Part shown: one piece after another, positions 17,701-60,705 of the stretch
Numbering within the stretch: position 1 is the first letter of the stretch
Layout: each line of letters begins with the position of its first letter
From: Terriglobia bacterium
Lineage (GTDB): Bacteria; Acidobacteriota; Terriglobia; Bryobacterales; Bryobacteraceae
DNA: 63,263 nt
Assembly (NCBI GenBank): GCA_019242155.1
Contig: JAFAWA010000038.1
Span: 1 to 63,263, forward strand
Reading direction: 5' to 3'
Notes under the pieces: model-generated
The model's input: only the letters and a program-made list of their open reading frames with translations
Told to the model about the DNA's origin: nothing
Databases searched by the model: none
Position numbers and translations under genes: made by a program

Positions 17701-17712
17701 AGGGGGAGAAGC

Positions 17713-39211: not shown

Positions 39212-39224
39212 GCGGTCACCGGCG
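39212..39224. promoter_or_regulatory. GGTCAC-motif copy (13-mer GCGGTCACCGGCG, identical to 45778-45790)
   Basis: It lies in the TBDR/MBL spacer, and the following ...CTAAT.C is also shared with the 45.8-kb copy. Confidence 0.4.
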
Positions 39225-39246: not shown

Positions 39247-41679
39247 TTAGAAAGAAAACCCCACTCCTCCGAGCGCGGTTACCCCAGAAGCCCGGTATCC
39301 TTCCGGATAATACGTTTTGTTGAAAAGATTGTCGACCTTTCCGTATACTCGAACGGCCCGGCTTTCTTTAGTCCAGAACTGATAGCTGCCGACGAAATCG
39401 GCTTTGGTCCAACCGGGAATCAGATATGCCTGGTTGTAACCGATGTAGGCGTTCAGCGAACTCGAGTACTTGTACATATCAAAAGTGGTCGTCAACCGCT
39501 TGCCCCATTGTTTGATGATGACGAGCGAAGCACTGTGCCGAGGCACATCGAATATCTGCCAGTAGCCGGGGACAGTGCTGTCCTGATCCGTTTCGGCTCG
39601 CGTGTAGGTGTACGACCCCGTGATCGTCATTCCCGCCATAGGCCGGGCTTCGCCGCTGAATTCCGCGCCCCGCGAGATCCCGCCGGCCCCGTTGATGTAC
39701 CCTGAGGTGCGGCCGTACGGATCGGTGACCGGCAGGATGTTCAGAAACTCGGTGACCTGTACGATACGCGTGTAGAAGAAGGTTCCCGACAACCGAATCC
39801 GGTTTCTAAAGAAATACTGATCCACACCGCCGTCGACGGAGTTGTATCGATCCGGCGCCAGGCGGGGATCTCCGTACGGGGTGAAGACCACCAACTTCGG
39901 ATTCGCGGGGTCGTTATAAAATCCCGCTCCAAAGCGCTCGTAGAGCCCCGGAGCCCGATATGAGTTGCCCACATGAGCGCGCAACTTGGTGCTGGTCTTG
40001 GCAAGAGTGTATGCCACTGATGTGTCGCCCGTCAGCGGCCGCGGCGCCTGCAGCGGCGAATTCACGTATGGATTTGCGGTTCCGGCGTATTCGAAATCAG
40101 GAGTTTTGATCTGGAAGGACTGTGCACGCCCGGAGAACGAAATCTGCAGGCGCTGATTCAACAGCGATAGGCGTGCTGCGAAATATCCGGCGTTCGAATT
40201 CTGCTGCGCATGCGTCGACTCTATGATGAGCTGGGGCGTGGGCAGATTATTGTCCTGGTGATCCGTATAGAACTCACGCTCGAACTCGTAGCCGCCGGAA
40301 AGCGAGAACCAGTGCGTGAAATCCGCTGTTGCGCGCAGGTCAAAGTTATCGATGTTCCCGGCATATTTACCATAATTCGTCGCCAGCGGCTGATAACCGA
40401 CTCCGCCCGGACCGTTTGTGTAAATCCGGTCGGTGCTCGTTTTGTTGTAGATCGCCTGCCAGTTGAATTTCGATGAAACCACGTCTTTGAACGTCACAGC
40501 TCCAGCCAGGAAATGGGACGCGCGCCGGTCGTCCGGATCCCACACATTCGGGACGAATGTGGCGTTCCCGAAGTTGGGTGATCCGCCCAAGGCAAACGCA
40601 TTGGCCTGCGCCACCGTTGCAGGGATGGCGGGGATCGGACCACTCGCCGGCAGGTTCGCCGGATTGATAACCGAGTTTGTCGGGCTATTCCCAAACATCA
40701 GGAAGTCGTCGGTTCCCCAGAAGCGCCCGGTAACGCTCATGCGCGGCGTCAGATTGTAGCGAAGTTGCCCCTGGACACCGGAATTCCTCCAGGGACTGTG
40801 TCCGTCGACACCTTCCATCACGTTTATGGTGACCAGGCCGACGCTGTACTGCAGCCGGTCTTGGAGCGCGCCGCCTCCGAGGCTTGCGCGTCCGCGGTAC
40901 ATGCCGAGGCTGCCGCCCTCCAACTGAATCTGCCCGTGGAATGGACCGCCTCCTTCCTTGGTCACCAGATTGATCGTGCCGCCGACGGCGTTCGTCCCAT
41001 AGAGCGACGAGCCGGAGCCTCGCAGAACCTCCACATGATCCACGTTGACCACCGTCATTGATTCGATGAACGAGCTGATGTCGCCCTGAGGATTGGCGGA
41101 ATCGCGAAGACGAATTCCGTCCACCAGGACCGCCGTGGCGTCAGCCCGGAGACCGCGGGAACTAATCGTGGTCCACTGCCCGGGGCCGCCCAAGTTTTGA
41201 ATGGTCACTCCCGGAGTGGTGGTCAACATATCCGAGATATTGTTGACGTTTCGATTCTCGATTTCCGCTGCGGAGACCACCGTAATGGGCTTGGACACTT
41301 CGTCCAGCATCTGCGCGCCCCCTTCGGCTGTCACGATCACCTGTTGGTTCACACCGGCGAGTTCTAAGGAAACGTCCAGATCTTTACTACTGCTCTTTTG
41401 GATTGTTACGCCCGTGGTCTGGGTGCGGAATCCATCCTTTTGGACCTGCAGTAGAAAGCTGCCCGGCGGGACCCCGACAAACTGATACTGTCCCGAGTCG
41501 GGAGTAACCGTGCGCGAAAATGCGGTTGAGTCCTGCTGGAAGATCTGCACGGTCGCGCCGCTCACCGCATTTCCTTGCGGATCGACGATCCTGCCCCGCA
41601 GTGCGGTTTCGCTTTGCGCGTATAAACCAGAACCCGCGAATACGGTTGTAAATAGCGCAGCTAGTCTGAACGACGTCAT
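39247..41679 (-). CDS. TonB-dependent receptor with N-terminal carboxypeptidase-regulatory-like domain
   Basis: The track ORF extends to 41919, but the signal peptide MTSFRLAALFTTVFAGSGLYAQ starts at ATG 41679. The CarboxypepD_reg-like region is LRGRIVDPQGNAVSGATVQIF and the plug is ITVVSAAEIENR..GVTIQNLGG. A long barrel ends in GGVGFSF with a terminal Phe. Confidence 0.9.
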   Translation of the reverse strand: MTSFRLAALFTTVFAGSGLYAQSETALRGRIVDPQGNAVSGATVQIFQQDSTAFSRTVTPDSGQYQFVGVPPGSFLLQVQKDGFRTQTTGVTIQKSSSKDLDVSLELAGVNQQVIVTAEGGAQMLDEVSKPITVVSAAEIENRNVNNISDMLTTTPGVTIQNLGGPGQWTTISSRGLRADATAVLVDGIRLRDSANPQGDISSFIESMTVVNVDHVEVLRGSGSSLYGTNAVGGTINLVTKEGGGPFHGQIQLEGGSLGMYRGRASLGGGALQDRLQYSVGLVTINVMEGVDGHSPWRNSGVQGQLRYNLTPRMSVTGRFWGTDDFLMFGNSPTNSVINPANLPASGPIPAIPATVAQANAFALGGSPNFGNATFVPNVWDPDDRRASHFLAGAVTFKDVVSSKFNWQAIYNKTSTDRIYTNGPGGVGYQPLATNYGKYAGNIDNFDLRATADFTHWFSLSGGYEFEREFYTDHQDNNLPTPQLIIESTHAQQNSNAGYFAARLSLLNQRLQISFSGRAQSFQIKTPDFEYAGTANPYVNSPLQAPRPLTGDTSVAYTLAKTSTKLRAHVGNSYRAPGLYERFGAGFYNDPANPKLVVFTPYGDPRLAPDRYNSVDGGVDQYFFRNRIRLSGTFFYTRIVQVTEFLNILPVTDPYGRTSGYINGAGGISRGAEFSGEARPMAGMTITGSYTYTRAETDQDSTVPGYWQIFDVPRHSASLVIIKQWGKRLTTTFDMYKYSSSLNAYIGYNQAYLIPGWTKADFVGSYQFWTKESRAVRVYGKVDNLFNKTYYPEGYRASGVTALGGVGFSF

Positions 41680-41765
41680 GAATATTTCCTTTCCGATTGG
41701 GCCATGATTCGATAGCGCAAGACGGGGACAGGCCGACATCGGCTGCCCGTGTGCGTTAGCGGCAG

Positions 41766-42950
41766 CTATGCCGCATCGTGCAACTGGCCGGTGGAGTGTC
41801 CGAGCCGCGGCTCGCGCCGCATCCTGGCGAGTTTCCTCGCAAGCACGCGATTCCACCACATGAGAAATCCGGTGATTGCGAGCAGCGCAGGGACAATGCC
41901 CATGAGCACCCAGAGACACTTCATCACCAGCCCGAAGTTTCCGAAGTGCAACGCATTAAGCCACACCAGGAAGCTCTCCCCAGCCCTGCGCCTCGTTGCT
42001 AATTGCAGCTTCACGATCTCTCCCGTGATGGGATCAACGTCGACGTTGCTGACGGAGGGGTAATCGCGAATGCCACCGCTCATCAGGGCCACTCGAAGCG
42101 CTCGACGCGGCTCATTTGGAATACTGACGTATTCCAGCCAAGAGCCGGGCACGGCTCTCGAGGCAGTGTCCAGAAGCCGGCTTAGCGGTAAGGGCTGTGC
42201 GCCCGGGTGCAATGGAATGGCGGCGGTTTCGGTCGGCCGCACCGTCGAGACGATCGAGACCAAAGCTTTGGTCTGTTTCGGCCACACGAAATACGCGCCG
42301 CTCGCCGAAAACATCAGCGTGAATAGGAGCGTAAAGAATCCTACGGTGCTGTGGAGGTCGTAGTTGACCCGCTTCCAACTCGCCGACCATCGGATGCTCA
42401 CGGCGCGCATCCAATATTTTTGGCCAGGCCACCACACCACCATGCCGGTCAGGCACAACAGTAAGAGCGCCAGTCCACCCGCGCCGTTTACAATTCTTCC
42501 GGTGGGTCCTGAAAGAAGGTTGATGTGCAGGTCGTCGAGCCACGCGAGAAAATCCTGGTTCAACTCCGGGCCGCGCTTGCCTACAATCGCTCCGGTAAAA
42601 GGATTGACGAAGACGGAACCGCGCTTACCATCGGATTGAATAGAAGCGCGGAAGGTGGATTGGGCGCTATAGGGAAGGCCCAACCCTGTTACCGTGGCGT
42701 TCGGGTAAGCGGCTATGACCGACTCCACAACCTTCTCAGCCGGAATATGGGGACCGCTGCCCGCAACGGTCAGGAGATCTTTAACCTGCCAGTCGCGGAT
42801 TTCCGGAGCAAATACCAGCAAGCTTCCGGTAAGCCCGACCACCACGGCATAGACCGCTGCCGCCAACCCTGCGTAGAGGTGGATCTGAAACAGCCACTCG
42901 CGTGCGGCGAAGGAGCGCGGCTTTTCGTAGATGCGTCGCACAACATTCAT
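41766..42950 (-). CDS. PepSY-associated TM-helix protein (PiuB/FoxB-like membrane protein)
   Basis: REWLFQIHLYAGLAAAVYAVVVGLTGSLLVF, DDLHINLLSG and LNALHFGNFGLVMKCLWVLMGIVPALLAITGFLMWW. The start is either ATG 42950 (MNVVRRIYEK) or the track start 42983. Confidence 0.85.
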   Translation of the reverse strand: MNVVRRIYEKPRSFAAREWLFQIHLYAGLAAAVYAVVVGLTGSLLVFAPEIRDWQVKDLLTVAGSGPHIPAEKVVESVIAAYPNATVTGLGLPYSAQSTFRASIQSDGKRGSVFVNPFTGAIVGKRGPELNQDFLAWLDDLHINLLSGPTGRIVNGAGGLALLLLCLTGMVVWWPGQKYWMRAVSIRWSASWKRVNYDLHSTVGFFTLLFTLMFSASGAYFVWPKQTKALVSIVSTVRPTETAAIPLHPGAQPLPLSRLLDTASRAVPGSWLEYVSIPNEPRRALRVALMSGGIRDYPSVSNVDVDPITGEIVKLQLATRRRAGESFLVWLNALHFGNFGLVMKCLWVLMGIVPALLAITGFLMWWNRVLARKLARMRREPRLGHSTGQLHDAA

Positions 42951-43007
42951 CAATGATGAACCCTCTCCCGAAATCTCAACCATGACCGGCCTCAGAGCAA
43001 TGATTTT

Positions 43008-44198
43008 CTAGCTCCGGGAGATCAACTGGAACTGCTCGACCTTCTCGCCGAGAATTTTTTGCGAATCGACCTCGAGCCACTGTTCGAGGACGTTCGCGTA
43101 GATCCCGCGGAAGTCGATCTTCGCGGGTAGTCCGCCGTCATTGGCGTTGGCGATATCCGGAAGGTCGCCGTGAATGCCCGCGCGGACCTTTCCACCCATG
43201 GCGAATACCAGGCCGGCATCGCCATGATCTGTGCCGCCCTCGCGATTCTCGCCCACCTGCCGTCCGAAATCGGAAAACGTCAATAACTGCACGCGCGAAA
43301 GCCGCCCGGCGGCCTTGAGATGCTCGGCGAAGGAACGCATTCCGCTTGCGAACTCGGAATACAGGACCTTGTGGATGTTTCGCTCGTCGCTATGTGTGTC
43401 AAAGGAGTACGGAGTATCGAAGGAGCCGAGGGTCACATAATACAAGCGCGTGGGAGCGCCGCTTTCAATCATGTTGCCGGCCCACCGTAGCGATTCTCCA
43501 AAAACTGTATTGGGATAGCTGAACCGCGACCCGGTTCCCTTACTCGCCTTGGCAAGTTGCCGTCCCATTTCGGCTAACTCGTTCTCCACCATCCGCAGAT
43601 GATCGAGCTTCGCGGCCGCAGGTGTTGCCGCGGGCGCCTTGGATTCCATTTGCATCAGTACCTTCGGATTGGCGATGGAACAGCTGCGGCCGCTACGGGA
43701 AGAAAGCGTCCGGTTCAGCATGTCCCCGAACTCGATGCCGGCTAATGCCCCGGCCTCCGCGGTCTGATCGAGGTACCGCCCGAGCCAGCCCTCGGCGGGG
43801 GCCTGCTCAGCGGTGCTGCCGGTCTCGAAAATCTCCGGCCCGCGGGTATGAGAGCGCGAAGAATTCGGATATCCGACATTGAGGATCGCGCTACCGTAAC
43901 CCTGATCGATCAGCCACTGGAAATCCGCGAGAGCCGGGTTCAATCCGAGGTCGCGGCCCTGAAGCGGAAGCGTCTCCTTCGAAGAGATCGCGATCGTGGG
44001 CCGTCCTTTGTAGTAGTGATCGTCGCGGATCGGAACGACCGCATTCAGCCCGTCGTTTCCTCCCCGCATCCTAACGATGATTAAAATATTGCCTTCATAA
44101 GACCCGTCGACGGCGAGCGCACTCTGCTGAAAAAACAGCGGAATCGCAGGCGTGAGCGCGCCCCATTGCAGAAAGCGGCGTCGATTGAAGCTGGACAT
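43008..44198 (-). CDS. DUF1501 domain-containing protein (Tat signal), second copy
   Basis: 396 aa with MSSFNRRRFLQWGAL, GGNDGLNAVVPIRDD, SFDTH and GGTDHGDAGLVFAMGGKVRAG. Confidence 0.82.
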   Translation of the reverse strand: MSSFNRRRFLQWGALTPAIPLFFQQSALAVDGSYEGNILIIVRMRGGNDGLNAVVPIRDDHYYKGRPTIAISSKETLPLQGRDLGLNPALADFQWLIDQGYGSAILNVGYPNSSRSHTRGPEIFETGSTAEQAPAEGWLGRYLDQTAEAGALAGIEFGDMLNRTLSSRSGRSCSIANPKVLMQMESKAPAATPAAAKLDHLRMVENELAEMGRQLAKASKGTGSRFSYPNTVFGESLRWAGNMIESGAPTRLYYVTLGSFDTPYSFDTHSDERNIHKVLYSEFASGMRSFAEHLKAAGRLSRVQLLTFSDFGRQVGENREGGTDHGDAGLVFAMGGKVRAGIHGDLPDIANANDGGLPAKIDFRGIYANVLEQWLEVDSQKILGEKVEQFQLISRS

Positions 44199-44227
44199 GT
44201 ATCTTCTCCTGATTCGAACGTTACCTG

Positions 44228-45709
44228 CTAGGCCAACTGATACTCGGGGGTCGCCAGAACCCGGCGCACCATCTCCTGGCTGCGTTTTGCCGGCGGAACT
44301 GCCTTCACGCTCCGTTCCAAAACCGCGGTATCGATGCCCGGGGCCGGATCGAGCCGTCTGAGGATGCTGGGCAACGGCCTATCGAGCGGTTTCGAGACCA
44401 CCGCGGGAGCGGTTGATGGAACCGGCGTCTCCGGAAGTAGACCCCAGGACGTATCTCCGCCGCACAGGGCAGCTCCCAACTGGTATCGCGCCGCCAGCCT
44501 TTCCGGCGGATTGGTCCACTCTTCCTGGCCGGGCCATCCCTCGCCCCCAAAGTTGGGTGCATCGAGCAGCGTCTGTCCGGAAGCGGTCATCCAGGTGTCG
44601 ATCGCAGCAAAGGGCGGATTCGATATTCCCAACTGGCGGCAAACGCCCACCACGAGATGCACCGGACTCTTGACCAGATTCCAGCGGGACGCGGGCGACC
44701 AGAACTCCTGACTCATCACTAAGTCGGCCAGCAGCGCCTCCACCGATCCTTTGGTGGTGTGATACGTCTCGGTCATCTGACCCGCAAGCCGCCCATCCGG
44801 ATCCTCGACGCCGAAATGCCGAATCATGAGCTTGCTGAAACGCCGGGCGGTGAGATCGTGCATTGCGAGGAATCGCACGGCATCGCGTGCTCCAAAATTG
44901 CGCGTGGTCCCGAGAATCGTCTTTGGGCCGTCGTCGAAGAACTCGGGATGAAACACAGGATTCAACCCCATCCGTCGATTAGAAGTAAACGCCTGGGGGT
45001 CGATCGGCTTGGGAGGCTGGACGCCTTCGGACGCCTCCAGCACCCAGCCCGTCAACGCGCGCGCGAGCGCCATTGTGTCCTCTCGTGAGTAATTTCCGGG
45101 CCCGATCGTCCAGTTATCGAACACTCGCGTGGCCGAAAACTCGGGCGGTTTCTCCTTCTTGGCCTCCTCGTAACTTTCCTGCATAATCATGCCGGGGTCG
45201 AGCACCATGGCTTCGACCATGTCCGGGATCGTGCCGAAAACGGCTTTTCGCAATAGTGCGTTGTATCCGTAGAGGGCCTGCGGGCCATCAATCACACGGC
45301 CGGATCCGCCGAAAACTCCGTGGAAGAAGAGGACCAGATTCTCCCGCAGAGGGGCCGTTCCGTTAATCATTTCCTGTAGCCACCACTCGCGCAGCACGGC
45401 CGCGTCGCGGCGGTTCGACTGACTGACCGCGTTTCGCATGGCCGCAATTTGGCTATTGGTCGTATCGGTAAACCGTAACGCTCTGTTGGTCCAGGTCCCT
45501 CGCGCGACGGCGGGCGTTTCCGGCAGGGCAGCCTCCCTGGACGCAGCCACCAGCGACCGGAAGGCGGCCGGAAGCGGTTTTCCTTCGATGGCTCGTTGCT
45601 GAGAGGGAGTGGCGGCGAAAGTGAGCCGACGCAGCAAATGACACGCGTCGGAGCTACCGCGGAGCACAATAGAAGACGGCGAATGGCTCATGTGGCCGAA
45701 TGCTAGCAT
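44228..45709 (-). CDS. DUF1800 domain-containing protein, second copy
   Basis: 493 aa with LLRRLTFAATP, LFFHGVFGG and GPGNYSREDTMALARALTGW. It is followed after 29 nt by DUF1501. An alternative start is ATG 45691. Confidence 0.78.
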   Translation of the reverse strand: MLAFGHMSHSPSSIVLRGSSDACHLLRRLTFAATPSQQRAIEGKPLPAAFRSLVAASREAALPETPAVARGTWTNRALRFTDTTNSQIAAMRNAVSQSNRRDAAVLREWWLQEMINGTAPLRENLVLFFHGVFGGSGRVIDGPQALYGYNALLRKAVFGTIPDMVEAMVLDPGMIMQESYEEAKKEKPPEFSATRVFDNWTIGPGNYSREDTMALARALTGWVLEASEGVQPPKPIDPQAFTSNRRMGLNPVFHPEFFDDGPKTILGTTRNFGARDAVRFLAMHDLTARRFSKLMIRHFGVEDPDGRLAGQMTETYHTTKGSVEALLADLVMSQEFWSPASRWNLVKSPVHLVVGVCRQLGISNPPFAAIDTWMTASGQTLLDAPNFGGEGWPGQEEWTNPPERLAARYQLGAALCGGDTSWGLLPETPVPSTAPAVVSKPLDRPLPSILRRLDPAPGIDTAVLERSVKAVPPAKRSQEMVRRVLATPEYQLA

Positions 45710-45737: not shown

Positions 45738-45790
45738 GGTCAATCGCCGGTCACTAACCGCCGATTCGTGGTCACGCGCGGTCACCGGCG
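45738..45790. promoter_or_regulatory. Phased array of GGTCAC-type hexamers upstream of DUF1800
   Basis: Copies are GGTCAA at 45738, GGTCACTAACCG at 45749-45760, GGTCAC at 45770 and GGTCAC at 45780 (within GCGGTCACCGGCG, 45778-45790). The spacings are 11, 21 and 10 bp. The array fills most of the 96-bp spacer. Confidence 0.5.
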
Positions 45791-45805: not shown

Positions 45806-47425
45806 CTACGGCGCTGTGCGGCGGGCTTGCGCCATGGTCATGGTGGCCGCGGGAGTCATGGCGTCGTAATAAGCGTTGAAACGGCGGGGCTCCGGCGCGT
45901 TATAGGACTTCAGATTATTGGCCCAGCGGTAGCCAATCGGCTGATACAGCAGCTCAACGTCTACGGTGAACGGACCCGCGGCATCGCCGAGCGGGACGGA
46001 ATATCGGACGCGGTCGCCGGCATCGGTGAAATTCGGATCGCTTGCGGCCTCACCGATTACGGCGATCTCGGGGCCGGCGGTGCGCTTGTCAAAGCCATGC
46101 GGCAGCAGCCGGTTATCTTTGATGTACCGTACCGCGGTAAGCAGGCCGGTGGTCACTCGACCAGTGGGGTCGGCCATGACCGATTCGTAGATCTGAACCT
46201 GATCGCTCGTGCGGATCTCGCGGTAATGGGGCTCGAAACGGCGCGGATCGGCATCATTATCGTTGCCCTGGATCGATCCGTCGGGATTGAGCGCGCCCGA
46301 TTCGAAGATGATCTTCTGGTTACGGTCGCGGACGGCCAGGTGCAGCCAGGTCCTGCGGGACGGATACGCGCTGGGCAGTTTGTGACCACCGAGGTTTTCG
46401 ACAAAAACATCGGCTTCGAGCCGCCCGCCCGCGACCGCGGCCTTTTCGATCGACAGCTTCACGCCCTGCGCTTGCAGATACCGTATGGTGTAGTCGGCCT
46501 GACCCGATAGCTCTTCGGGCAGCGCGCTTACCCTCAGCTCGTCACGAAAGCGGTTCAGCATCCGAAGCATGAAAAAGTTGGAAGCCACGAAGACGTGGCG
46601 CGCCACGTTCTCCCGGGGCTTGCCGAGCACGCGGGCGATGGGAACGTTCTCTTCGACCGCCGGCATGTGGCAGCTCTGACAGCTCTTCTGATCCTTATAA
46701 CTGCTGTGCAGCCACTCCTCGAAGGGCACCTGTTCCGGCAGTTCGCCGATCACGGCGTCCCCGGCACCGAGGGCCTCGGTATATAGGGTGTGGCAGGTGG
46801 CGCAAAGCTCGGATTTACGGATATGGTCATTCTTCGTCGGGTGGTAGCCTTCCGAAGAGCTTCGCATGATGCGGGTCTGGCCCTTCTCGATATCAAAGGG
46901 TCCGTACTCGGGGCGGTTGTCGGCGGCGTCGGGCGGGTCGATGACGAAGCCTCCGTTGAAGCTCTCGCGAGTGCCCAGCTTCTGTTCTCCGATCTGATGG
47001 CACACCGAGCAAGAGACCCCATCCTCGGCTTTGGCGCCGTTTTTTGGGTCGGCCTCGAAGGGTAAATGCGAGAAGACTTGGCCCTTCGCTCCGCGGAGCT
47101 TGGCCTCATAGCGAACGATGGGCATGTGGCATACGGCGCATTCGTCTTCGATATCGGCTTTGCGGTTGGGATGATCGATGGTCTCGCGCCGCACACTCGC
47201 CTGCCAGTAGGGATCGCGGGAGGAGTTGGCCATGATACTGGCGCGCCAATTGAATCCGATGGAGATGTCTTCGCCGGATGGAGTTTGGAGGCCGTTGTGG
47301 CACACCATGCAGCGATCGGAAGTTTGAAACCGCGGCTGCAACTCCTTCCGCCGCGCGCCGGCGGCAGTTCTTAGAACGGTAAACAGCAGCAGAGCTGTGA
47401 GAGCGGCCGAAACCCTCCGGGTCAT
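45806..47425 (-). CDS. Secreted pentaheme c-type cytochrome with heme-free C-terminal domain
   Basis: 539 aa with signal peptide MTRRVSAALTALLLFTVLRTAAG. It has five CxxCH motifs: CMVCH, CAVCH, CSVCH, CATCH and CQSCH. About 250 aa at the C-terminus carry no heme motif. Its start abuts the stop of the upstream cytochrome-barrel gene (TAAATG). Confidence 0.88.
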   Translation of the reverse strand: MTRRVSAALTALLLFTVLRTAAGARRKELQPRFQTSDRCMVCHNGLQTPSGEDISIGFNWRASIMANSSRDPYWQASVRRETIDHPNRKADIEDECAVCHMPIVRYEAKLRGAKGQVFSHLPFEADPKNGAKAEDGVSCSVCHQIGEQKLGTRESFNGGFVIDPPDAADNRPEYGPFDIEKGQTRIMRSSSEGYHPTKNDHIRKSELCATCHTLYTEALGAGDAVIGELPEQVPFEEWLHSSYKDQKSCQSCHMPAVEENVPIARVLGKPRENVARHVFVASNFFMLRMLNRFRDELRVSALPEELSGQADYTIRYLQAQGVKLSIEKAAVAGGRLEADVFVENLGGHKLPSAYPSRRTWLHLAVRDRNQKIIFESGALNPDGSIQGNDNDADPRRFEPHYREIRTSDQVQIYESVMADPTGRVTTGLLTAVRYIKDNRLLPHGFDKRTAGPEIAVIGEAASDPNFTDAGDRVRYSVPLGDAAGPFTVDVELLYQPIGYRWANNLKSYNAPEPRRFNAYYDAMTPAATMTMAQARRTAP

Positions 47426-48559
47426 TTACCAGCCTTCCTTCAGACTGCCGTCAAACCAGTCCCAGAGTACATAGAAGACTGCCTGGACGGGACGGCCCTG
47501 GGTGTTGGTTACGGGGACGTCGATGCCGAAGTCTGCCCGGACGTGCTGCCGCCTGCTCAAGGTCACCTGGAACTCGGGAAGGATATCGTAACCGGTCTTA
47601 GCGCCGGTGAGAAGGTCGCGCCGGGCCAGGATTTCCAGCATAGGGGTCCACATGCGGCCATCCCCCTGGCCCTGCCGCAGGCCCTTCCCCAGAGACTCCC
47701 GCCAAAACAGAGATTGAGGGGCGGTGCGGGTATTGGCAGACAGGTTTGCGCCCACTTCGCCCTGGAAGAAAAAGTTGTAGGGTAATAGCTGCCCATAGGC
47801 GGCGAAGGTCTCGAACGTGGTCACACCCGCGCCCGTGCCTCTCCTCGGACTGCCTGTGGGCGCTATTACGGTGCCGTCGATGCTGAAAATCGAGCCGGTG
47901 CGGTTATTGAGCCCGAGCACCCGCAGCCAGCCCAGCCCGATGTCTCCAATCCCACCCAGCCAGCGCCCGGTGCTGTGTGTGAACGCGACCGGGACGGTCG
48001 CATCGATCTCGTTTTTGACGCCCACGCGATGCTCGTACTCGATTTCGTTGTTCACTCCCGGCGCGCCGTGGGCATTGAGCGTCGTAGTGCTGATGACCTC
48101 GTCTTCGGGGAATGCCTTGTCCACCATCAGGGGCCTTGGCAGATTTAGTTCGCCTCGCGGCCATTCGGGCTCGCGGCAGAGAGTTCGCAAGTAGCCGATC
48201 ACGAGGTCGATCTGCTCGGAAGTGAGTGCCTCGCTGAAAGACGGCATTATCGGGGAGAAGCCGCGCCCGGGGCCGCCGCGGCGGATCGTGGCTTTCCAGT
48301 CGGCATCGAGTTCCGGCGTGGTTCCGGAGCAATCGGAGAAATCGGGGAACGTAGCGGGTTTTTTGAAGACCAGCGTCGTATCCGGCTGTCCCTTGCCGTC
48401 CGGCCCATGGCAAGCGACGCAGGCCGCCAGATAGATACTCTTACCCGAGCCGAGATCCAGTTCGCCGGTCTGGCTGTTCTGCGGGAGAAGCACGGCGGGG
48501 TAAGTGAGCAGAAGCAGAACCGCAATTACGAGCGGCGGAAGTCCCAGCGGTGTTTTCAC
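47426..48559 (-). CDS. Monoheme class-I cytochrome c domain fused to a predicted outer-membrane beta-barrel domain (Cyc2-like architecture)
   Basis: The track ORF extends to 48706. GTG 48559 gives a signal-peptide-like start (V)KTPLGLPPLVIAVLLLLTYPAVLLPQ. The cytochrome region is GKSIYLAACVACHGPDGKG...IMPSFSEALT. About 230 aa of alternating hydrophobic pattern follow, ending ...VLWDWFDGSLKEGW with a terminal aromatic residue as in OMPs. Confidence 0.7.
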   Translation of the reverse strand: MKTPLGLPPLVIAVLLLLTYPAVLLPQNSQTGELDLGSGKSIYLAACVACHGPDGKGQPDTTLVFKKPATFPDFSDCSGTTPELDADWKATIRRGGPGRGFSPIMPSFSEALTSEQIDLVIGYLRTLCREPEWPRGELNLPRPLMVDKAFPEDEVISTTTLNAHGAPGVNNEIEYEHRVGVKNEIDATVPVAFTHSTGRWLGGIGDIGLGWLRVLGLNNRTGSIFSIDGTVIAPTGSPRRGTGAGVTTFETFAAYGQLLPYNFFFQGEVGANLSANTRTAPQSLFWRESLGKGLRQGQGDGRMWTPMLEILARRDLLTGAKTGYDILPEFQVTLSRRQHVRADFGIDVPVTNTQGRPVQAVFYVLWDWFDGSLKEGW

Positions 48560-48700
48560 TGAGTCAAGAAAAGAACGGTGGGCCGTCCTTTCCGAGGGCC
48601 TGGAGTTGAGGGAAGTATGATTGGGGTCGTAGACCAATTCCAATGATATATTTTCTGAGGCAAAGCTGAAGCCGGCAGTTCTCGCCACCCAACGCCTGGC

Positions 48701-48737
48701 GGTCACAGTTAGTCAGTAACCGGATGTAACGAGTCAC
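48701..48737. promoter_or_regulatory. Phased GGTCAC-type hexamers upstream of the cytochrome operon
   Basis: Copies are GGTCAC at 48701, AGTCAGTAACCG at 48711-48722 and AGTCAC at 48732, with spacings of 10 and 21 bp. The middle element matches the 12-mer at 45749 and 60685 in 10/12 positions. Confidence 0.45.
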
Positions 48738-50187: not shown

Positions 50188-50214
50188 GTGACCGTGCGTA
50201 ACCCGGGAGTGACC
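50188..50214. promoter_or_regulatory. GTGACC-GTAACC-GTGACC phased triplet upstream of the PepSY gene
   Basis: Copies are GTGACC at 50188, GTAACC at 50198 and GTGACC at 50209, with spacings of 10 and 11 bp. They sit in the 278-bp spacer and are the reverse complement of the GGTCAC arrays. Confidence 0.4.
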
Positions 50215-50372
50215 GCCGTCCGGTTTCCGCCGGAGGAGGCTCGTGATACGCTTCCACATGCGAGCCGCCCCCCTAATCCCCGAGCGAGCCGGAGTGAAGA
50301 TCCCCACTCATCACTCCGGCATAGCTCGGGCGGCGGCTGGCACAGCCTGATGGGGGTTCAATCATTCGTCCC

Positions 50373-52964: not shown

Positions 52965-53132
52965 GAAAGTGCAGAGCGCCCGGCGCTTACCGACCGGTTG
53001 TAGCACAGGTTTAGCTCAGCGATGGCCAATGGGCAGGACACGGCGGTCTGTGACCTGGTTGGCAGCGTTTAAGGACGGGCGATCTGCCGGCGCGAGCGCC
53101 TGAGCTAGGCCGTTTCACAACATACTGAGAGC

Positions 53133-53149: not shown

Positions 53150-53157
53150 TAGAAAAG

Positions 53158-53175
53158 GTCACAATACGCTGTGAC
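53158..53175. promoter_or_regulatory. Inverted repeat GTCACA-N6-TGTGAC containing the GGTCAC motif
   Basis: The sequence is aGGTCACAatacgcTGTGACtt. It is adjacent to the first palindrome, and a further CCAGGTCACA copy lies on the other strand at 53049-53058. Confidence 0.4.
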
Positions 53176-53311
53176 TTGCCCGTATCCCAAGCGAGCGCGG
53201 TGACAGACGCGCGCGATCGCTATTTTCTTAACCAGTGGGAGCTCTGAACAGCATGCAGGATCAGGAGTCTGGGTGCCTGTTTGCTTGAGTTCGCCCCAGG
53301 AGGTTTCTACG

Positions 53312-53720: not shown

Positions 53721-54653
53721 TCAATGTGAACCAGCCATTCTTGTTCTGCGATTCCACCACAGGATAAGTCCGGTTATGGCTAAGAATGCAGTAAAAAGAC
53801 TCGCCGAGGCCCAGAGAATGCGCATAGCCATCGACGGAAATTGGCCAACGTGAAACGTGTAAGACAGGCGAGCGAGTGGTGACGGTACCCGAAGCTGGAG
53901 GGTAGTTTCGGTAATCAGCACAGCGGCGGTGACTGCGAATATGAAAACGAGCGGGAAGGTCCAAAAGCCGACGGCGCTATGGAACTCCCAATGGAATCGC
54001 CTCAACTGTAAATGACGGCGAATTCGCAGGTGCCGCCGCCATCGGCTGACGCCAGGCCACCAGATCACGATCCCAGTAGAGGCTAACGAAGCAAGCAGAG
54101 CAGCTCCCAAACCATTTACCCGGCGCCCGCTCGCCCCCGAACATAAGTTCGTGTGGAGATCCTTCACGGAATTTAACAGGCGCACCGGGAAAGGTCTCGC
54201 GGTACCCAAGTCTTCTCCTGTGAATGGATCGAAGAGACGCTCGGTCTGGTTGCGTCCGTGAGTCAACCAGATTTCGACCGGAAGATTGCTCCGCTCCCAA
54301 ATCCAAGTCACCGAGGAGCCCGGATGCGCCTTAAGGGCTGCCTCCTTCAGCTGTGCGCGGGTCAGATGCTTAGCACGAACCTCAATATGAGGGTGCGGCG
54401 TTAACCCCCGGTAAAGCTCCGCGTAAAATACCAAGACACATCCGGTAAGGCTCATCATCACGACGTACAGTCCGGCTCCGACTCCTATCCAACTGTGGAT
54501 GCGAAATAGAAACTGCCGGGCAGACAAGCGCTGCGGATGCCCAACCCAGGTTCGCCACGTGGAGGAGAGCGCCGGAACTACCGAAAACAGCTGCAGTTTG
54601 CGCCATCGGATTAGAAGCCCACACGGTCCCCCCGTTGCCGGCATGAACGACAT
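53721..54653 (-). CDS. PepSY-associated TM-helix protein (third copy), last gene of the czc operon
   Basis: 310 aa with FLFRIHSWIGVGAGLYVVMMSLTGCVLVF, VKDLHTNLCSG and GLGAALLASLASTGIVIWWPG. It starts 6 nt after the czcA stop. Confidence 0.8.
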   Translation of the reverse strand: MSFMPATGGPCGLLIRWRKLQLFSVVPALSSTWRTWVGHPQRLSARQFLFRIHSWIGVGAGLYVVMMSLTGCVLVFYAELYRGLTPHPHIEVRAKHLTRAQLKEAALKAHPGSSVTWIWERSNLPVEIWLTHGRNQTERLFDPFTGEDLGTARPFPVRLLNSVKDLHTNLCSGASGRRVNGLGAALLASLASTGIVIWWPGVSRWRRHLRIRRHLQLRRFHWEFHSAVGFWTFPLVFIFAVTAAVLITETTLQLRVPSPLARLSYTFHVGQFPSMAMRILWASASLFTAFLAITGLILWWNRRTRMAGSH

Positions 54654-54659
54654 TATAAG

Positions 54660-57600
54660 TTACGAATTTACTCTCAGGCCGCGCTTCCGCGGCGTCGTCC
54701 ACTCATACAATACGGGCAAAAGAAAGAGCGTCAGCATGGTGGAACTGACCAGGCCGCCAATCACCACGCTCGCGAGCGGCCGCTGCACTTCGGCGCCGGT
54801 GGAGCTCGAAATCGCCATGGGAACAAATCCGAAACTGGCGACGAAAGCGGTCATGAGCACAGGCCGCAATCTGCGGCGCGCTCCCAGGCGTACGGCTTGG
54901 CCGGAAGAGTGCCCGGCATTTTGCATTTGATTGATGGAACTGACCAGCACCACTCCGTTGAGCATCGCGACTCCGAATAGCGCAATGAACCCAATTGAGG
55001 CCGAAAGATTGAGATTCAATCCGCGAAGCCAAAGAGCGGCAATCCCGCCCACCAGAGCAAACGGTATGTTTCCTACTACGAGCAAAGCGTCGCGGGCGCT
55101 CGAAAAGGTTAGATACAAAAGCACGAAGATCAGCGCGATCGCAACAGGTACGATCAGCATTAGCCGGTGAGCCGCTCGCTCCTGGTTTTCAAACTGACCG
55201 CCATACTCTATGAAGTACCCCGTCGGCAGGGTGATGCCGCGCTCGATGCGCGACCGGACTTCCGCGACAAAACCACCCAAGTCGCGCCCGCGCACATTGG
55301 ACATGACGACGATACGCCGCTGACCGGACTCCCGGTTGATCAGCTCCGGCCCGCGTTTTACCTCGACCCGCGCCACGGCGCTTAAAGCGACCTGTTCGCC
55401 GCCCCGCGCACGCAGCATAATCCGGCGCATCGCGTCAGGATCGGTCCGGTAGCGCTGTGGGAGACGCAGAGCCACGGTATAGCGTTTCTGGCCGTCGATG
55501 ATTTCGGAGATTACATCGCCCGAACCACCGCTGGAAACCGCCTGTTCCACATCCGTGATGTTCAGGCCGTACCGGGCGAGAGCGGAGCGATCCACCGCAA
55601 CCGACAACTCCGCCACTCCGGAGGTGATCTCCATCTGGGCGTCCGCCGCGCCGCGAACCGCCGAAACGGTCCGTAATAGCTGCTGCCCAATGGTGTCGAG
55701 CGTACGGAAGTCATCACCGAAAATTTTAATCGCCAGGTCCGCCTTGACTCCCGAAATCGTTTCGTCAATGCGCATGGCCATGGGTTGCGTGAAACTATGC
55801 GCGACGCCTGGGATCGTATCGAGCTCCTTATCGAGCGCCGCAATCAGTCTTTCCTTACTATGGAACCTGGTCCAAGTCTCCATCGAGCGCAGCAGAAGGT
55901 AGGTGTCTCCTTCGTTGATTCCCATGGCCTCGGTTGCAAAATCCGGACGGCCGATTTTGATCACCACATCCGCAATTTCCGGAAACTTCCGGAGCCGCTG
56001 CTCGATGACTTTACTGATGGCCACGGACTCGGTTAGTGAGACTCCGGGCAATTTGCGCGTCTCCACCAGAATCGATCCTTCATCGAGGCGCGGCATGAAT
56101 TCCGTTCCGATGAAGTACAACGATCCGAGCGCCGCGGCCAACACCAGTACGGCAGCAGACACGACAAGGATGCGGTGCCGAATTGCCTGGTCCAAAACCC
56201 GGGTATAGCCGTTGGTCAGCGAGGTCATCCACCGTGGCTCGCGCGAGGACTCATGTTCAACTCCTTTTCGGAACGCGGCCGAGGTCAGCAGCGGCACCAT
56301 GGTCAGCGCGAGAACAAGCGATCCGGCGAGCGCAGTGCATACCGTAATCGCCATGGGGCGGAACATCCGGCCCTCCATTCCCTGCAAAAACAGAATCGGC
56401 AGATAGACCGCAATGATGATGATTACGGCGAAGACCATGGGGCGTGCGACTTCGTGTGCCGCGTGACGAATGGATTCCAGGGGCAATCGCCGGCCGCGGT
56501 CTTCTTGCAGACGATGCACGGAATTTTCCATCATGACAACGGCGCCGTCCACGATCATTCCAAAGTCGATCGCCCCGAGGCTCATCAAATTCGCGCTGAT
56601 GCCGAACAGACGCATTCCGAGGAAGCTGATCAGCATGGAAAACGGAATAATCGCCGCCGTAATGAGGGCGGCCCGGAGATTGCCAAGGAACAGCAGCAAT
56701 ACGATCGTGACCAGAATGAAGCCTTCAAACAGATTTTTCTCCACTGTATGGATCGTGCCGTCGATTACGAACGACTGGTCGTAAAAGGGAGTAATCCTCA
56801 CCCCGGGCGGTAAGCGGAGATTGCGAATTCTCTCCTTTACACGCTCGATCAGCTTCTTCCCGTTTTCCCCTTTGAGCATGATCACCATGCCGGAGACGGT
56901 TTCGCCGTTGCGCAGTGTCGCTCCTTCTGGCGGGGCAGAGCCGATGCGAACTTGAGCAACGTCTCGCAGCAGCAGCGGTACGCCGTTTTTCGCACTGAGC
57001 ACGATGCGGCCCAGGTCTTCAGCCGTTACTGCCCGGCCGGAGCCCAACAAAGTGTACTGCTCGGCAGCGTGCTCAATGAAACCTCCTCCGAAATTGGTGT
57101 TATTCTCCTGAACGCGTGTTTCTATTTCGTGGAGAGTCAGTCCGTATTGATCAAGCAGCGCTGGATCGACAAGAATCTGGTACTGCTTCGTTTGGCCGCC
57201 CCAGGCATTGATCTCGCTCACTCCCGGAATTGTGCGCAACTGTGGTTTGATCACCCACTCGTGAAGGTCCTTCAGTTCCATCGGACCCATGGGGCCTGAT
57301 AGTGTGTACTGGTAAAGCTCCCCAAACGCGGTAGCAGGCAGGCCGAGAGCAGGCCGAATTCCGCGAGGCAAACTGGAAGAGACTTGCTGCAACCGCTCAG
57401 CGACAAGCTGCCTTGCAAAGTACATGCCCACGGAGTCATCGAAGACGATAGTGACCAGAGACAGACCGAGCTTTGAAAGGGATCGGACCTCCTCTTTATT
57501 GGGCAAGCCGAGCATCGCCCGTTCGATCGGATAGGTCACGAGCTGTTCCACCTCGGCCGGCGGCAGCGACGGAGCATCCGTCACCACCACAACCTGATTG

Positions 57601-57731
57601 TTGGTGAGGTCCGGGAAGGCTTCCACGGGAATGGTATAGAGGGCGTAGCCACCCGCGCCCAGCAGAGCCAAGATGCCAAGGAGCACGAGCCAGCGATAGG
57701 CCAAGGTCAAATCAATTATCCGGTTCAGCAC
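54660..57731 (-). CDS. czcA: CusA/CzcA-family heavy-metal efflux RND transporter
   Basis: 1023 aa beginning MLNRIIDLTLAYRWLVLLGILALLGAGGYALYTIPVEAFPDLTNNQVVVVT, with 12-TM RND architecture throughout. Confidence 0.93.
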   Translation of the reverse strand: MLNRIIDLTLAYRWLVLLGILALLGAGGYALYTIPVEAFPDLTNNQVVVVTDAPSLPPAEVEQLVTYPIERAMLGLPNKEEVRSLSKLGLSLVTIVFDDSVGMYFARQLVAERLQQVSSSLPRGIRPALGLPATAFGELYQYTLSGPMGPMELKDLHEWVIKPQLRTIPGVSEINAWGGQTKQYQILVDPALLDQYGLTLHEIETRVQENNTNFGGGFIEHAAEQYTLLGSGRAVTAEDLGRIVLSAKNGVPLLLRDVAQVRIGSAPPEGATLRNGETVSGMVIMLKGENGKKLIERVKERIRNLRLPPGVRITPFYDQSFVIDGTIHTVEKNLFEGFILVTIVLLLFLGNLRAALITAAIIPFSMLISFLGMRLFGISANLMSLGAIDFGMIVDGAVVMMENSVHRLQEDRGRRLPLESIRHAAHEVARPMVFAVIIIIAVYLPILFLQGMEGRMFRPMAITVCTALAGSLVLALTMVPLLTSAAFRKGVEHESSREPRWMTSLTNGYTRVLDQAIRHRILVVSAAVLVLAAALGSLYFIGTEFMPRLDEGSILVETRKLPGVSLTESVAISKVIEQRLRKFPEIADVVIKIGRPDFATEAMGINEGDTYLLLRSMETWTRFHSKERLIAALDKELDTIPGVAHSFTQPMAMRIDETISGVKADLAIKIFGDDFRTLDTIGQQLLRTVSAVRGAADAQMEITSGVAELSVAVDRSALARYGLNITDVEQAVSSGGSGDVISEIIDGQKRYTVALRLPQRYRTDPDAMRRIMLRARGGEQVALSAVARVEVKRGPELINRESGQRRIVVMSNVRGRDLGGFVAEVRSRIERGITLPTGYFIEYGGQFENQERAAHRLMLIVPVAIALIFVLLYLTFSSARDALLVVGNIPFALVGGIAALWLRGLNLNLSASIGFIALFGVAMLNGVVLVSSINQMQNAGHSSGQAVRLGARRRLRPVLMTAFVASFGFVPMAISSSTGAEVQRPLASVVIGGLVSSTMLTLFLLPVLYEWTTPRKRGLRVNS

Positions 57732-57736
57732 TGTGC

Positions 57737-58939
57737 TTACTCGCTTTCCAGACTGGATCGCAGCAACTGCGACTTGAGAATGAAACTGCCGCGAATCACC
57801 AGCCTCTCGCCAGAGCGGACGCCTTCGAAGACGGGAGTGCTGCCGTCGGCGGTTTCGCCAATGCGAACCGGCCGAACCGCGAAGCGCCCCGGCGCAACCT
57901 GGGCGAAAACTACGTCCTGACCGTTGATTTGCTGGACGGCATCGGACGCAACCAAAATCACTTGCCTGCCTCTGCCTACGGGAATTTGCGCATCGGCGAG
58001 CATCTCGGGCCTTAAGCGGCCGCCCGCATTCGCCAATTCGATACGCACCTCTATGACGCGCGTAGCAGGATCGAATTCCTGGCCGAGATTCGTAATTCTG
58101 CCGGAGAAGCGGGTGCCTTCCAAGCCCGGCAAAGTTACCGAGGCCTGCTGACCCATGCGGAGTTTGCCCAGATCTTCCTGGTGCACGGCCGCCAGCATCC
58201 AGACCTTTGAAAGGTCGCCGATAACGAAGGTGACGTCTGTGAGCGCGATCGCCTTACCAGGCGTAATGCTCTTCTCGATGACGTAACCGTCTCCCGAAGC
58301 GATGATCGGCACATCGTCTTCGGTTTCATCCTGCCGGTCGGCGGGTGGGTCAGCCGGAACGCGGAGGTCGTCCTCGAGCAAGTCTTTTCCCCTGTCCACT
58401 TCTATTTCCGCCTTGCGCACAGCCCCCTGAGCCATGGTCAGATCCTGCTGCGCCAATTCCACCTGTTGAACGGAACCGGCCTTCAGTTCGAGCAGCCTCT
58501 GCGCCCGATCGAGGTTCCGTTGTGCCTGAGCCGCAGCGGCTTTGGCACGATCCAACTCGGCGAGAGTCGCCCGGTACTGCGCGCGCGAATCGCGCACCTC
58601 ATCGGCGTGGTAGCGGGCCAGAATCTGGCCTTGATGAACATAGTCGCCCAGGCGCGTATAAACATGAGTGACGAGGCCTGGCGTGCGGATCCCGACCCGC
58701 CACGTACGATCATCTGCGAGCGCGATCTTACCTTTCACCCGCAGCAGCTCCGGCTGGCTGGAAAGCGCCGCGGTTTGCGTCTCGATATTCGCCGCGCCCA
58801 GTTGCTCCGGTGAGAGGACGACCTCCGCTTTATCTGCTCTAGCCTCCTTGGAGCCGGCCGAAACCTCGCCCGAAGGCATCGCCCGATTGCAGGCGGCCAA
58901 AGCGAAACACGCCAACAGCAAACAGCAATTCCTGTTCAT
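57737..58939 (-). CDS. czcB: Efflux RND periplasmic adaptor (CzcB/CusB-like), lipoprotein signal
   Basis: The track ORF extends to 59008. MNRNCCLLLACFALAAC (lipobox) starts at ATG 58939, which overlaps the czcC stop as ATGA. It has a coiled-coil hairpin and beta-barrel MFP pattern. Confidence 0.88.
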   Translation of the reverse strand: MNRNCCLLLACFALAACNRAMPSGEVSAGSKEARADKAEVVLSPEQLGAANIETQTAALSSQPELLRVKGKIALADDRTWRVGIRTPGLVTHVYTRLGDYVHQGQILARYHADEVRDSRAQYRATLAELDRAKAAAAQAQRNLDRAQRLLELKAGSVQQVELAQQDLTMAQGAVRKAEIEVDRGKDLLEDDLRVPADPPADRQDETEDDVPIIASGDGYVIEKSITPGKAIALTDVTFVIGDLSKVWMLAAVHQEDLGKLRMGQQASVTLPGLEGTRFSGRITNLGQEFDPATRVIEVRIELANAGGRLRPEMLADAQIPVGRGRQVILVASDAVQQINGQDVVFAQVAPGRFAVRPVRIGETADGSTPVFEGVRSGERLVIRGSFILKSQLLRSSLESE

Positions 58940-60177: not shown

Positions 60178-60259
60178 AAACTCCTTTGAATGCAGGAATA
60201 ACCGTCGTAGCGCCGGCAGGCGCAAAGTCCGGACACACAAATGTCAGTGCTGGGGAGAG

Positions 60260-60637
60260 TTAGGCGGGCGGAGCTCTTGGAACAATCTGGTCAGCGCACG
60301 GCGGGTCGTGACCGCACTCCTCCACGACGGCGACGGGTTCGAAAGTCGGCGAGGGAATGGGCAGGATGGCCGGTGCGCGGGATGGAACAAAGGGCGCGAT
60401 TCCAGCGGTCAATACCAGGGTAAAAGCATCCACCTGCCAGACCGCCCGATGGTCGTCGTCATCATCGAAGTGACGGCCGCCGTGCCCGGTTTGCGGGATG
60501 GGTCCGCCGTAGAAATGCGCGTGGACTAACCCGGCGTGGTCGTGATCGCCGTCTCCCGTGTGAACGTGTTGGAACGGCGCCAGGGCAAAAGCCGTAAGCA
60601 GTCCGAGACACGTTTGCAGCGCGGCGAAACGACGCAT
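60260..60637 (-). CDS. Secreted His/Asp-rich small protein, first gene of the czc operon
   Basis: 125 aa with signal peptide MRRFAALQTCLGLLTAFALA. The next stretch is PFQHVHTGDGDHDHAGLVHAHFYGGPIPQTGHGGRHFDDDDDH, with 10 His in about 45 aa. A Pro-rich tail contains CGHDPPC. Confidence 0.6.
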   Translation of the reverse strand: MRRFAALQTCLGLLTAFALAPFQHVHTGDGDHDHAGLVHAHFYGGPIPQTGHGGRHFDDDDDHRAVWQVDAFTLVLTAGIAPFVPSRAPAILPIPSPTFEPVAVVEECGHDPPCADQIVPRAPPA

Positions 60638-60671
60638 TCCTTGTAGAGTCTACACCAAAAGGACGTGTTTC

Positions 60672-60705
60672 CCAGGTCACCGCAGGTCACTAACCGTCAT
60701 TGACC
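60672..60705. promoter_or_regulatory. GGTCAC direct repeats plus shared 12-mer upstream of the czc operon
   Basis: The sequence is CCAGGTCACcgCAGGTCACTAACCGtcatTGACC. GGTCAC occurs at 60675 and 60685 (10-bp spacing). GGTCACTAACCG at 60685-60696 is identical to 45749-45760. The array lies 38-68 bp upstream of the His-rich ORF start. Confidence 0.5.

Follow-up and report, generated by a model that had tools for sequence, protein, structure and literature searches.

The stretch of DNA analysed here (63,263 nucleotides of contig JAFAWA010000038.1 from a Terriglobia bacterium, an uncultured acidobacterium of soil; hereafter the window) contains, between 39 and 61 kb, an island of receptor, cytochrome, czc and DUF-labelled genes whose intergenic spacers share a recurrent GGTCAC/GTGACC motif. 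The window has a G+C content of 59% and includes the chromosomal origin region with dnaA, dnaN, gyrB, parAB and gidAB; its genes are also typical of Acidobacteriota, among them TonB receptors with a CarboxypepD_reg domain, DUF1800/DUF1501 pairs and PSD/DUF1552 proteins, and the named sources of homologues of its proteins are Bryobacteraceae or Bryobacterales. On the minus strand the island begins with the order DUF1800-DUF1501-PepSY_TM-TonB receptor, then cytochrome c and a multihaem cytochrome, while the plus strand carries a BNR_2 and a PepSY_TM gene; a cytochrome c'-like protein and two DUF6152 genes are also present. The minus strand further holds the gene for a protein of 125 residues, czcC, czcB, czcA and another PepSY_TM gene, and malate dehydrogenase and an IS256-type transposase complete the list. 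An NCBIfam search of ten island proteins yielded no useful names.

Half-site arrays in the spacers of the island

The original prediction, made from the letters alone, had listed copies of the motif at seven places, and every one of these copies was recovered in position and in spacing (Table 1). They define an array unit, (G/T)T(G/A)ACC, usually followed by G, of which two to four copies stand head to tail on one face of the helix with a period of 10-11 bp or a multiple thereof. The central copy is often lengthened to CGGTTA-GTGACC, and this half-site with its CGGTTA extension is the 12-mer GGTCACTAACCG, which had been described as shared between spacers and occurs exactly twice in the window, at 45749 and 60685; the shared 13-mer GCGGTCACCGGCG likewise occurs exactly twice, at 39212 and 45778. 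The 12-mer is also an imperfect palindrome (GGTCA-C-TAACC), whose perfect version, GGTCACTGACC, is found on two contigs from relatives (L149 and L150), and in some arrays a single inverted copy is present 8-10 bp upstream. Site B, with half-sites at 48701, 48711 and 48732, lies in the divergent spacer between the cytochrome operon (minus strand) and the BNR_2 gene (plus strand); since homology to cytochrome c begins near residue 76 of the open reading frame (ORF), the true start of this gene would be roughly 140 nt downstream of the site. Two of the seven places probably lie outside the system: the GTGACC at 30769 is probably a chance copy, and the membership of the half-site at 39212 is uncertain.

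Table 1. Arrays, presumed promoter elements, leader and putative target genes, in window coordinates unless a contig of a relative is named
Feature	Coordinates	Strand	Description
Site A	45738..45790	-	GTGACC (45785-45780), +10 GTGACC (45775-45770), +21 CGGTTA-GTGACC (45760-45749), +11 TTGACC (45743-45738); directed at the DUF1800 operon
Site B	48701..48737	-	GTGACT, +21 CGGTTA-CTGACT, +10 GTGACC; directed at the cytochrome c/multihaem operon
Site C	60675..60705	-	GGTCAA inverted (60705-60700), N3, CGGTTA-GTGACC (60696-60685), N4 (+10) GTGACC (60680-60675); directed at the His-rich 125-residue gene and czcCBA
Site D	50188..50214	+	GTGACC (50188), +10 GTAACC (50198), +11 GTGACC (50209); directed at PepSY_TM
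Site E	53157..53176	+	GGTCAC-N8-GTGACT, inverted plus direct copy; direct copy directed at DUF6152 (53273-53710)
Lone GTGACC	53050..53055	+	In the divergent DUF6152/DUF6152 spacer shared with site E; membership uncertain
Lone half-site	39212..39224	-	13-mer also present at site A (minus strand: CGCCGGTGACCGC); a metallo-beta-lactamase-fold gene lies 212 nt downstream; no phased partner
Lone GTGACC	30769..30774	+	Falls within the loop of CGGCCGTCC...GGACGGCCG, an inverted repeat that resembles a terminator, behind a DUF1552 gene; no partner
-10-like TAGCAT	45700..45705	-	32 nt beyond the final half-site of site A; the second ATG of the DUF1800 ORF (45691) follows 8 nt later; presumed role
-10-like TAGACT	60647..60652	-	In conserved TTTTGGTG-TAGACT-CTACAAGGA-ATG; 22 nt past site C, 9 nt before the ATG
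TGATACGCT	50244..50252	+	Extended -10-like, invariant in all five PepSY_TM loci; presumed promoter
Structured 5' leader of the PepSY_TM gene	50253..50372	+	Three nested predicted helices between TGATACGCT and the gene start, downstream of site D
Leader orthologues	L139 2367-2475, L145 7655-7764, L146 3872-3977, L148 5587-5689		Conserved, about 110 nt
TAAGTTATTTTTTTTCAG block	L139 2209-2226, L145 7478-7495, L146 3675-3692, L148 5400-5417		Approximate coordinates
DUF1800 operon, putative target	39247..45709	-	DUF1800 44228-45709, DUF1501 43008-44198, PepSY_TM 41766-42983, TonB-dependent receptor 39247-41919 (Pfam)
Cytochrome operon, putative target	45806..48706	-	Cytochrome c 47426 to about 48560, multihaem cytochrome 45806-47425 (Pfam)
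czc operon, putative target	53721..60637	-	His/Asp-rich 125-residue protein 60260-60637, CzcC 58936-60240, CzcB 57737-59008, CzcA 54660-57731, PepSY_TM 53721-54653
PepSY_TM gene, putative target of site D	50373-51905	+	
DUF6152 genes	52560-53006 and 53273-53710	- and +	

The enrichment in spacers that had been claimed for the motif holds, but the figure of more than 14 spacer copies is reached only with one-mismatch variants, the exact hexamers numbering 12. These 12 belong to a total of 37 exact GGTCAC/GTGACC copies in the window (25.9 +/- 4.6 in shuffles) and fall within 4.4 kb of spacers, or 7% of its length; the hexamer ranks first for spacer enrichment among 2080 strand-merged hexamers (binomial p=3.1e-6, or about 6e-3 after Bonferroni correction), and CGGTCAC is the most spacer-enriched heptamer. 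The composite GGTCAM-N4/5-RGTCASTAACCG occurs three times in the window as against none in 100 shuffles, and the six phased pairs (gap of 4-5 nt), all of them located in spacers, compare with 0.66 +/- 0.81 in 200 order-2 Markov simulations. Every spacer copy falls in the segment from 30 to 61 kb, and the spacers before it, 2.3 kb in all, are free of the hexamer. A second DUF1800-DUF1501 pair (15892-18954, plus strand) has no GTGACC half-site in its upstream spacer (15738-15891), so that the motif is tied to one operon and not to the protein family as such.

Conservation in relatives and register with presumed promoter elements

Close relatives, with 64-82% protein identity and of Bryobacteraceae type, were reached via the 125-residue protein, the 510-residue PepSY_TM protein and DUF1800. 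Motif arrays recur at orthologous promoters on nine of their contigs (about 111 kb), and the phylogenetic footprinting of orthologous spacers that the original prediction had proposed is thus positive in close relatives. As a negative control we used 80 metagenome loci (764 kb) with multihaem-cytochrome orthologues at 59-74% identity. An unbiased histogram of same-strand spacings over the window and the nine close loci (175 kb) peaks at 10-11 bp (23 cases), 21-22 bp (8) and 31-33 bp (5), with two more at 42 bp and almost none otherwise, whereas the distant loci contain no same-strand pair at 10-11 bp; the helical phasing read from the window is thereby borne out. Phased pairs number 27 in the close loci as against 4 in the distant ones. 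With the single pair of a tenth contig (L142) added to these 27, all are located in spacers except for L138 8824 and L142 2238, which are intragenic, and every spacer pair points at the adjacent downstream gene, including those in seven spacers between co-directional genes.

The individual arrays have recognisable counterparts on these contigs. Upstream of the 125-residue gene, the orthologous loci on L144, L138 and L141 carry GGTCAm-N3/4-CGGTT(A/C)GTGACm-N5-GTrACC, which is the composite of site C, and the head of the czc operon is kept in L139, L141 and L142. PepSY_TM orthologues on L139, L145, L146 and L148 have TTGACC-N5-GTrACC (“cluster 2”) at the position of site D, and in alignments of the PepSY_TM promoters the invariant columns are the hexamers and the downstream -10-like block, with variable sequence in between. 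On the same four contigs, a second array of three to four repeats (“cluster 1”) lies about 160 nt further upstream, beside the divergent TonB receptor gene. The layout of site E is found upstream of DUF6152 in L145 and L146 as GGTCAC-N8-GTGACC-N5-GTGACC, and the divergent DUF6644/DUF6152 spacer of L139 holds two back-to-back pairs (8614-8655, including the 12-mer GGTCACTAACCG), each facing its own gene. L150, a metagenome-assembled genome of the Bryobacteraceae, has the identical four-gene order in its DUF1800 operon, with CTGACC, a second CTGACC at +21, TTGACC at +22 and an inverted pair upstream of DUF1800, and L149 carries GGTCACTGACCGGTCAC in a divergent ACAD/BNR_2 spacer comparable to that of site B. 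The gene pair for cytochrome c and multihaem cytochrome is kept in 79 metagenome loci. A scan of 185,579 species genomes for the strict composite gave 56 single matches in scattered phyla, which is chance background; no genome in this collection had more than one match, and the window's own three copies were also not returned. The three Acidobacteriota matches of that scan (L026, L030 and L034) are located inside or at the ends of unrelated ORFs.

Downstream of the arrays, the -10-like boxes keep a constant helical register. The block ATGCTAGCAT around the box of the DUF1800 operon (ATGC-TAGCAT-N7/8-ATG) is kept in L150, and the last half-site of site D is followed after 32 nt by the start of the TACGCT hexamer of TGATACGCT; at the five PepSY_TM promoters the corresponding distance is 31-33 nt by manual count. 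From the last half-site to the -10-like box, the gap is 22 nt at site C, 32 nt at site A, 33 nt in L138, 43 nt in L141, 65 nt in L144 and, counted to the conserved block, 31 nt in L150; all of these gaps are equal modulo about 10.5, that is, one helical turn. A simple sigma-70 promoter scan found nothing at the sites, and by direct reading the promoters have no good -35 element. Such a layout, in which the arrays precede the presumed start in helical register and a good -35 is lacking, would be expected if an activator touched RNA polymerase from a single face of the DNA. Because the -10-like boxes lie only 8-9 nt before the ATGs (45691-45709 and 60638-60660), their placement further suggests leaderless or near-leaderless mRNAs for the DUF1800 and 125-residue/czc operons.

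The proposed binding factor and competing explanations

The original prediction had favoured a DNA-binding regulator without a cognate gene nearby, and this interpretation is supported by the phasing, conservation and orientation of the copies, with no plausible regulator gene in the window. Judged from sequence, the hexamers are probably half-sites in operator arrays that a single sequence-specific transcription factor, its gene located at another place in the genome, would recognise, a reading to which we assign a probability of roughly 0.7. Such a factor would bind head to tail as a dimer or higher oligomer, would most likely activate promoters that lack a good -35, and may repress where an array adjoins the TonB receptor promoter of the relatives.

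By analogy, the factor may be a winged-helix response regulator of the OmpR/PhoB type, to which we give somewhat less than an even chance; most of the remaining probability goes to a NarL-type or another oligomerising factor, since inverted copies occur. Like OmpR/PhoB arrays, those described here consist of direct repeats of a 6-7 bp half-site at 10-11 bp from centre to centre. In class II activation by regulators of this type, pho boxes replace the -35 element, and the present arrays are similar: their direct repeats occupy a single face of the helix and either abut a promoter that lacks a good -35 or stand upstream of it; the proximal half-site of site C would sit at about -40 to -35 relative to the presumed start. 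Unlike the PhoB class II arrangement, the array is located one, two or four helical turns further upstream in orthologues, which is closer to class I. The arrays also resemble the sites of AfsQ1, MtrA and PhoP (PHO box), which are related to the GlnR boxes of actinomycetes. For GlnR itself, an OmpR-type regulator, chromatin immunoprecipitation gave the consensus GTnAC-n6-GTnAC, often present in four tandem copies (PMC3087709). The GTGAC(C)-n5/6-GTGAC of the window fits this consensus literally, the GlnR period being 11 bp, and in both cases arrays of two to four copies stand upstream of the core promoter. The differences are that our arrays come from Acidobacteriota (Bryobacteraceae-like), that their targets are metal transport and cytochrome genes, not nitrogen assimilation, and that C at the sixth position and often the next G are conserved, with an occasional inverted copy and the CGGTTA extension. 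A literature search retrieved nothing on GTGACC direct repeats as a response-regulator binding site. Operators of the DtxR/IdeR, Fur/Zur and CRP types were rejected on their different half-site geometry.

Several observations weigh against the operator reading or against parts of it. First, inverted copies and the near-palindrome GGTCA-C-T(A/G)ACC are untypical of OmpR-family sites. Second, neither the scan of 49 window ORFs nor the gene tables of the nine related loci revealed a regulator with a Trans_reg_C domain, and no regulator gene adjoins any array in the window or in the roughly 111 kb of related loci. The only regulators of the window are a stand-alone receiver domain (30339-30725) and a MerR-family protein of 127 residues (24461-24844, plus strand), and the only one in the related loci is encoded by a Fur-family gene in L150. 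This last gene (3356-3614) has a TonB receptor gene and genes of cobalamin synthesis as neighbours, and ahead of it stand two TTGCGAC-N5-GTCGCAA palindromes, which look like the box of an autoregulated metalloregulator, distinct from the GTGACC motif. Third, the -10 assignments, and with them the activating role, are ones that we infer from the sequence. Fourth, in relatives a conserved block, TAAGTTATTTTTTTTCAG, follows the receptor-proximal cluster 1 at 3-14 nt. It might serve the divergent gene as its -10 (TAACTT), act as a bend or UP element, or bind a second factor; if TAACTT is the -10 of the receptor gene, cluster 1 would be downstream of the start and repressive. The window has a counterpart, GTAACTTAC, at 48752-48760, beside site B. 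Fifth, L142 encodes an orthologue of the 125-residue protein at 63% identity behind a promoter without the motif. Another repeat, GGTTAG GGTTAG ATTAG ... TCTAACC, occupies the same promoter position there (9820-9900), so that the operator apparently turns over within the family. Sixth, the 80 distant loci contain neither the 12-mer nor GTGACC-N4/5-GTGACC and have lost the DUF1800 synteny; this absence from 764 kb indicates that the motif is lineage-specific, and we take it as lineage-specific turnover, not as a refutation. Finally, the copy counts are those of the window and the collected loci of relatives.

An alternative that we consider unlikely is that the arrays are operators of a factor outside the OmpR/PhoB type, whether NarL/FixJ-type, LexA-like or MerR-like (BldC-type), or of the MerR-family protein encoded in the window. 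NarL/FixJ-type regulators bind heptamers in variable orientation and spacing, and inverted as well as direct copies are indeed present (sites C and E, L139 8614-8655, and GGTCACTGACC in L149 and L150); moreover, alphaproteobacterial LexA (GTTC-N7-GTTC) and Streptomyces BldC use direct repeats, and the MerR-family gene is the only one in the window for a classical DNA-binding regulator. The prevailing pattern, however, is head to tail at 10-11 bp. As for the MerR-family protein, it has no Cys/His ligands for a metal site, and its gene stands 21 kb away beside parB with no GTGACC motif in its own upstream spacer; classical MerR operators, besides, are palindromes within a 19-20 bp spacer between -35 and -10, unlike these arrays.

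A very improbable alternative is action at the RNA level, in which GUGACC repeats in 5' untranslated regions would be bound by an RNA-binding protein or form part of leader structures. The arrays always run along the direction of transcription, a structured leader follows site D, and the transcription starts are inferred positions, all of which would suit this idea. Yet a 10.5-nt period with further steps at 21, 32 and 42 nt is characteristic of the DNA helix and not of RNA, the conserved -10-like blocks come downstream of the arrays and in phase with them, the back-to-back divergent pairs would require two overlapping antisense leaders, and sites A, B and D give no folding signal. It is even harder to regard the hexamers as -35-type elements recognised by an alternative or extracytoplasmic function (ECF) sigma factor: the targets lack a good sigma-70 -35, the TTGACC variants resemble a -35 hexamer, and TonB receptor and metal genes are often under ECF control, but one promoter needs one -35, not two to four phased copies, the copy nearest to the -10-like box lies 22-65 nt away in whole turns instead of at a fixed 16-18 nt, and direct reading finds no conserved CGTC-type partner at a fixed distance.

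The REP-like repeat family (repetitive extragenic palindromic) that the original prediction had kept as its alternative, or a family resembling miniature inverted-repeat transposable elements (MITE), or else a composition artefact without regulatory role, has next to no probability left: the motif is short, GC-rich, intergenic and recurrent, like REP and bacterial interspersed mosaic elements, a 12-mer and a 13-mer are common to different spacers and an IS256-type transposase flanks the region, but the shuffles and Markov simulations exclude a composition artefact, only the hexamers are conserved while flanks and spacers differ among copies and orthologues, there is no palindromic hairpin unit at sites A, B and D (fold z of -1.1, -0.1 and +0.8), Tandem Repeats Finder gives no call, the spacers of the first 30 kb are free of copies, the genome collection returned no multiple composites, and the copies occupy orthologous, promoter-proximal positions beside functionally coherent genes, with orientation and phase fixed relative to the promoters. 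Sites C and E fold only through their single inverted copy.

A probably metal-related target set and a predicted structured leader

The putative target set comprises pairs of TonB receptor and PepSY_TM, DUF6152, the His-rich protein with czcCBA, and cytochromes, to which the islands of relatives add HupE/UreJ_2, four tandem DUF6644 genes and COX1/COX3; these targets likely point to a transition-metal signal. That the signal is copper, possibly in the supply of haem-copper oxidases, is a reasonable guess and not a result. CzcA has the motif DFGMIVDGAVVMMEN / DFGMIVDGAVVMMENS in transmembrane helix 4, of which we take DFGMIVDGAVVMMENS to be of the divalent-cation heavy-metal efflux type (DFG...DGA...EN). 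The first gene of the czc operon (60260-60637, minus strand) encodes a secreted, His/Asp-rich protein (HVHTGDGDHDHAGLVHAH...RHFDDDDDH) without a Pfam or NCBIfam match, from a family of about 95 members whose few named ones are Bryobacteraceae; it may be a periplasmic metal-binding or CzcI-like component. Both DUF6152 proteins have AHH(A/Q)FS(A/S)EFDA directly after the predicted signal peptide, so that the mature proteins, like the L145 homologue, would begin with His-His, which suggests a metal site. DUF6152 genes also regularly form a pair with the gene for a cytochrome c'-like protein (about 200 residues). A literature search found no papers on DUF6152 or DUF6644, and those on DUF1800/DUF1501 were irrelevant.

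The leader of the PepSY_TM gene has an invariant CCCGAGC/GCTCGGG stem plus outer and inner stems, with a compensatory change in only 2 of the 33 pairs among five sequences. Rfam gave no match at gathering thresholds for the window, L138, L139 and L141, and in E-value mode only two chance microRNA matches (E>2); nhmmer found no further copies in the collected sequences. A short ORF runs from the conserved ATG of the leader, but its frame and length differ among the window, L139 and L145, and by eye it contains no CXXC. The leader is a candidate for a new cis-regulatory RNA and may add a second layer of control.

A parallel to part of this arrangement exists in Bordetella. Recent work on Bordetella pertussis showed that a TonB-dependent transporter and its PepSY_TM partner provide haem-copper oxidases with copper and that such pairs react to copper starvation (PMC12914433, PMC13038864); the copper-starvation operon cruR-crtA-crpH is under post-transcriptional control, exerted by an upstream ORF (DUF2946) that bears CXXC and, at its C-terminus, RAPP (PMC9426467). 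As with CrtA and CrpH, the TonB receptor of the island is paired with PepSY_TM, the leader carries a candidate control element, and haem-copper oxidase or cytochrome genes are nearby (COX1/COX3 in L145, a COX operon beside the homologue in P0108). Unlike in Bordetella, there is no DUF2946 gene here, the leader ORFs of the window, L139 and L145 lack the CXXC of a CruR-type upstream ORF and are not conserved in frame, and control appears to be transcriptional, via the arrays; the likeness to CrpH and CrtA is one of paired protein families. It is tempting to speculate, as a combined picture that we consider distinctly doubtful, about a Bryobacteraceae-specific regulon for the acquisition of transition metal, perhaps copper, and the support of respiratory oxidases, in which a novel oligomerising regulator would act at variable whole-turn distances from near-leaderless promoters and the leader, a candidate metal- or ligand-sensing riboswitch, would form a second control layer on a CrpH-like PepSY_TM gene.

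The arrays are an ordinary, well-known kind of cis-regulatory element, and what is new is a lineage-specific instance of it; it is useful for annotation and as a starting point for experiments, not as a new principle. To our knowledge, almost nothing is known about transcriptional regulation in Acidobacteriota, which are among the most abundant soil phyla, and most of the target genes carry only DUF labels. The conserved operator links DUF1800/DUF1501, DUF6152 (and DUF6644 in relatives), TonB receptor and PepSY_TM, the His-rich protein with czcCBA, and the cytochrome pair as one putatively co-regulated unit, which gives a testable hypothesis for the uncharacterised families, namely metal acquisition or homeostasis linked to respiration, and the arrays offer a defined DNA bait for finding the regulator.

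Three minor observations concern the window and the islands at large. Remnants of PepSY_TM genes are present in L139 and L150, and rearrangement of the islands appears to be frequent. A fragment of an IS256/Mutator-family transposase (62130-63095, plus strand) lies immediately past malate dehydrogenase, where the region ends. Finally, a tRNA gene (72 bits; 10364-10436, plus strand) overlaps the mechanical start, at 10387, of a ferritin-like ORF (10387-10971), so that the real start of the ferritin gene must be further downstream.

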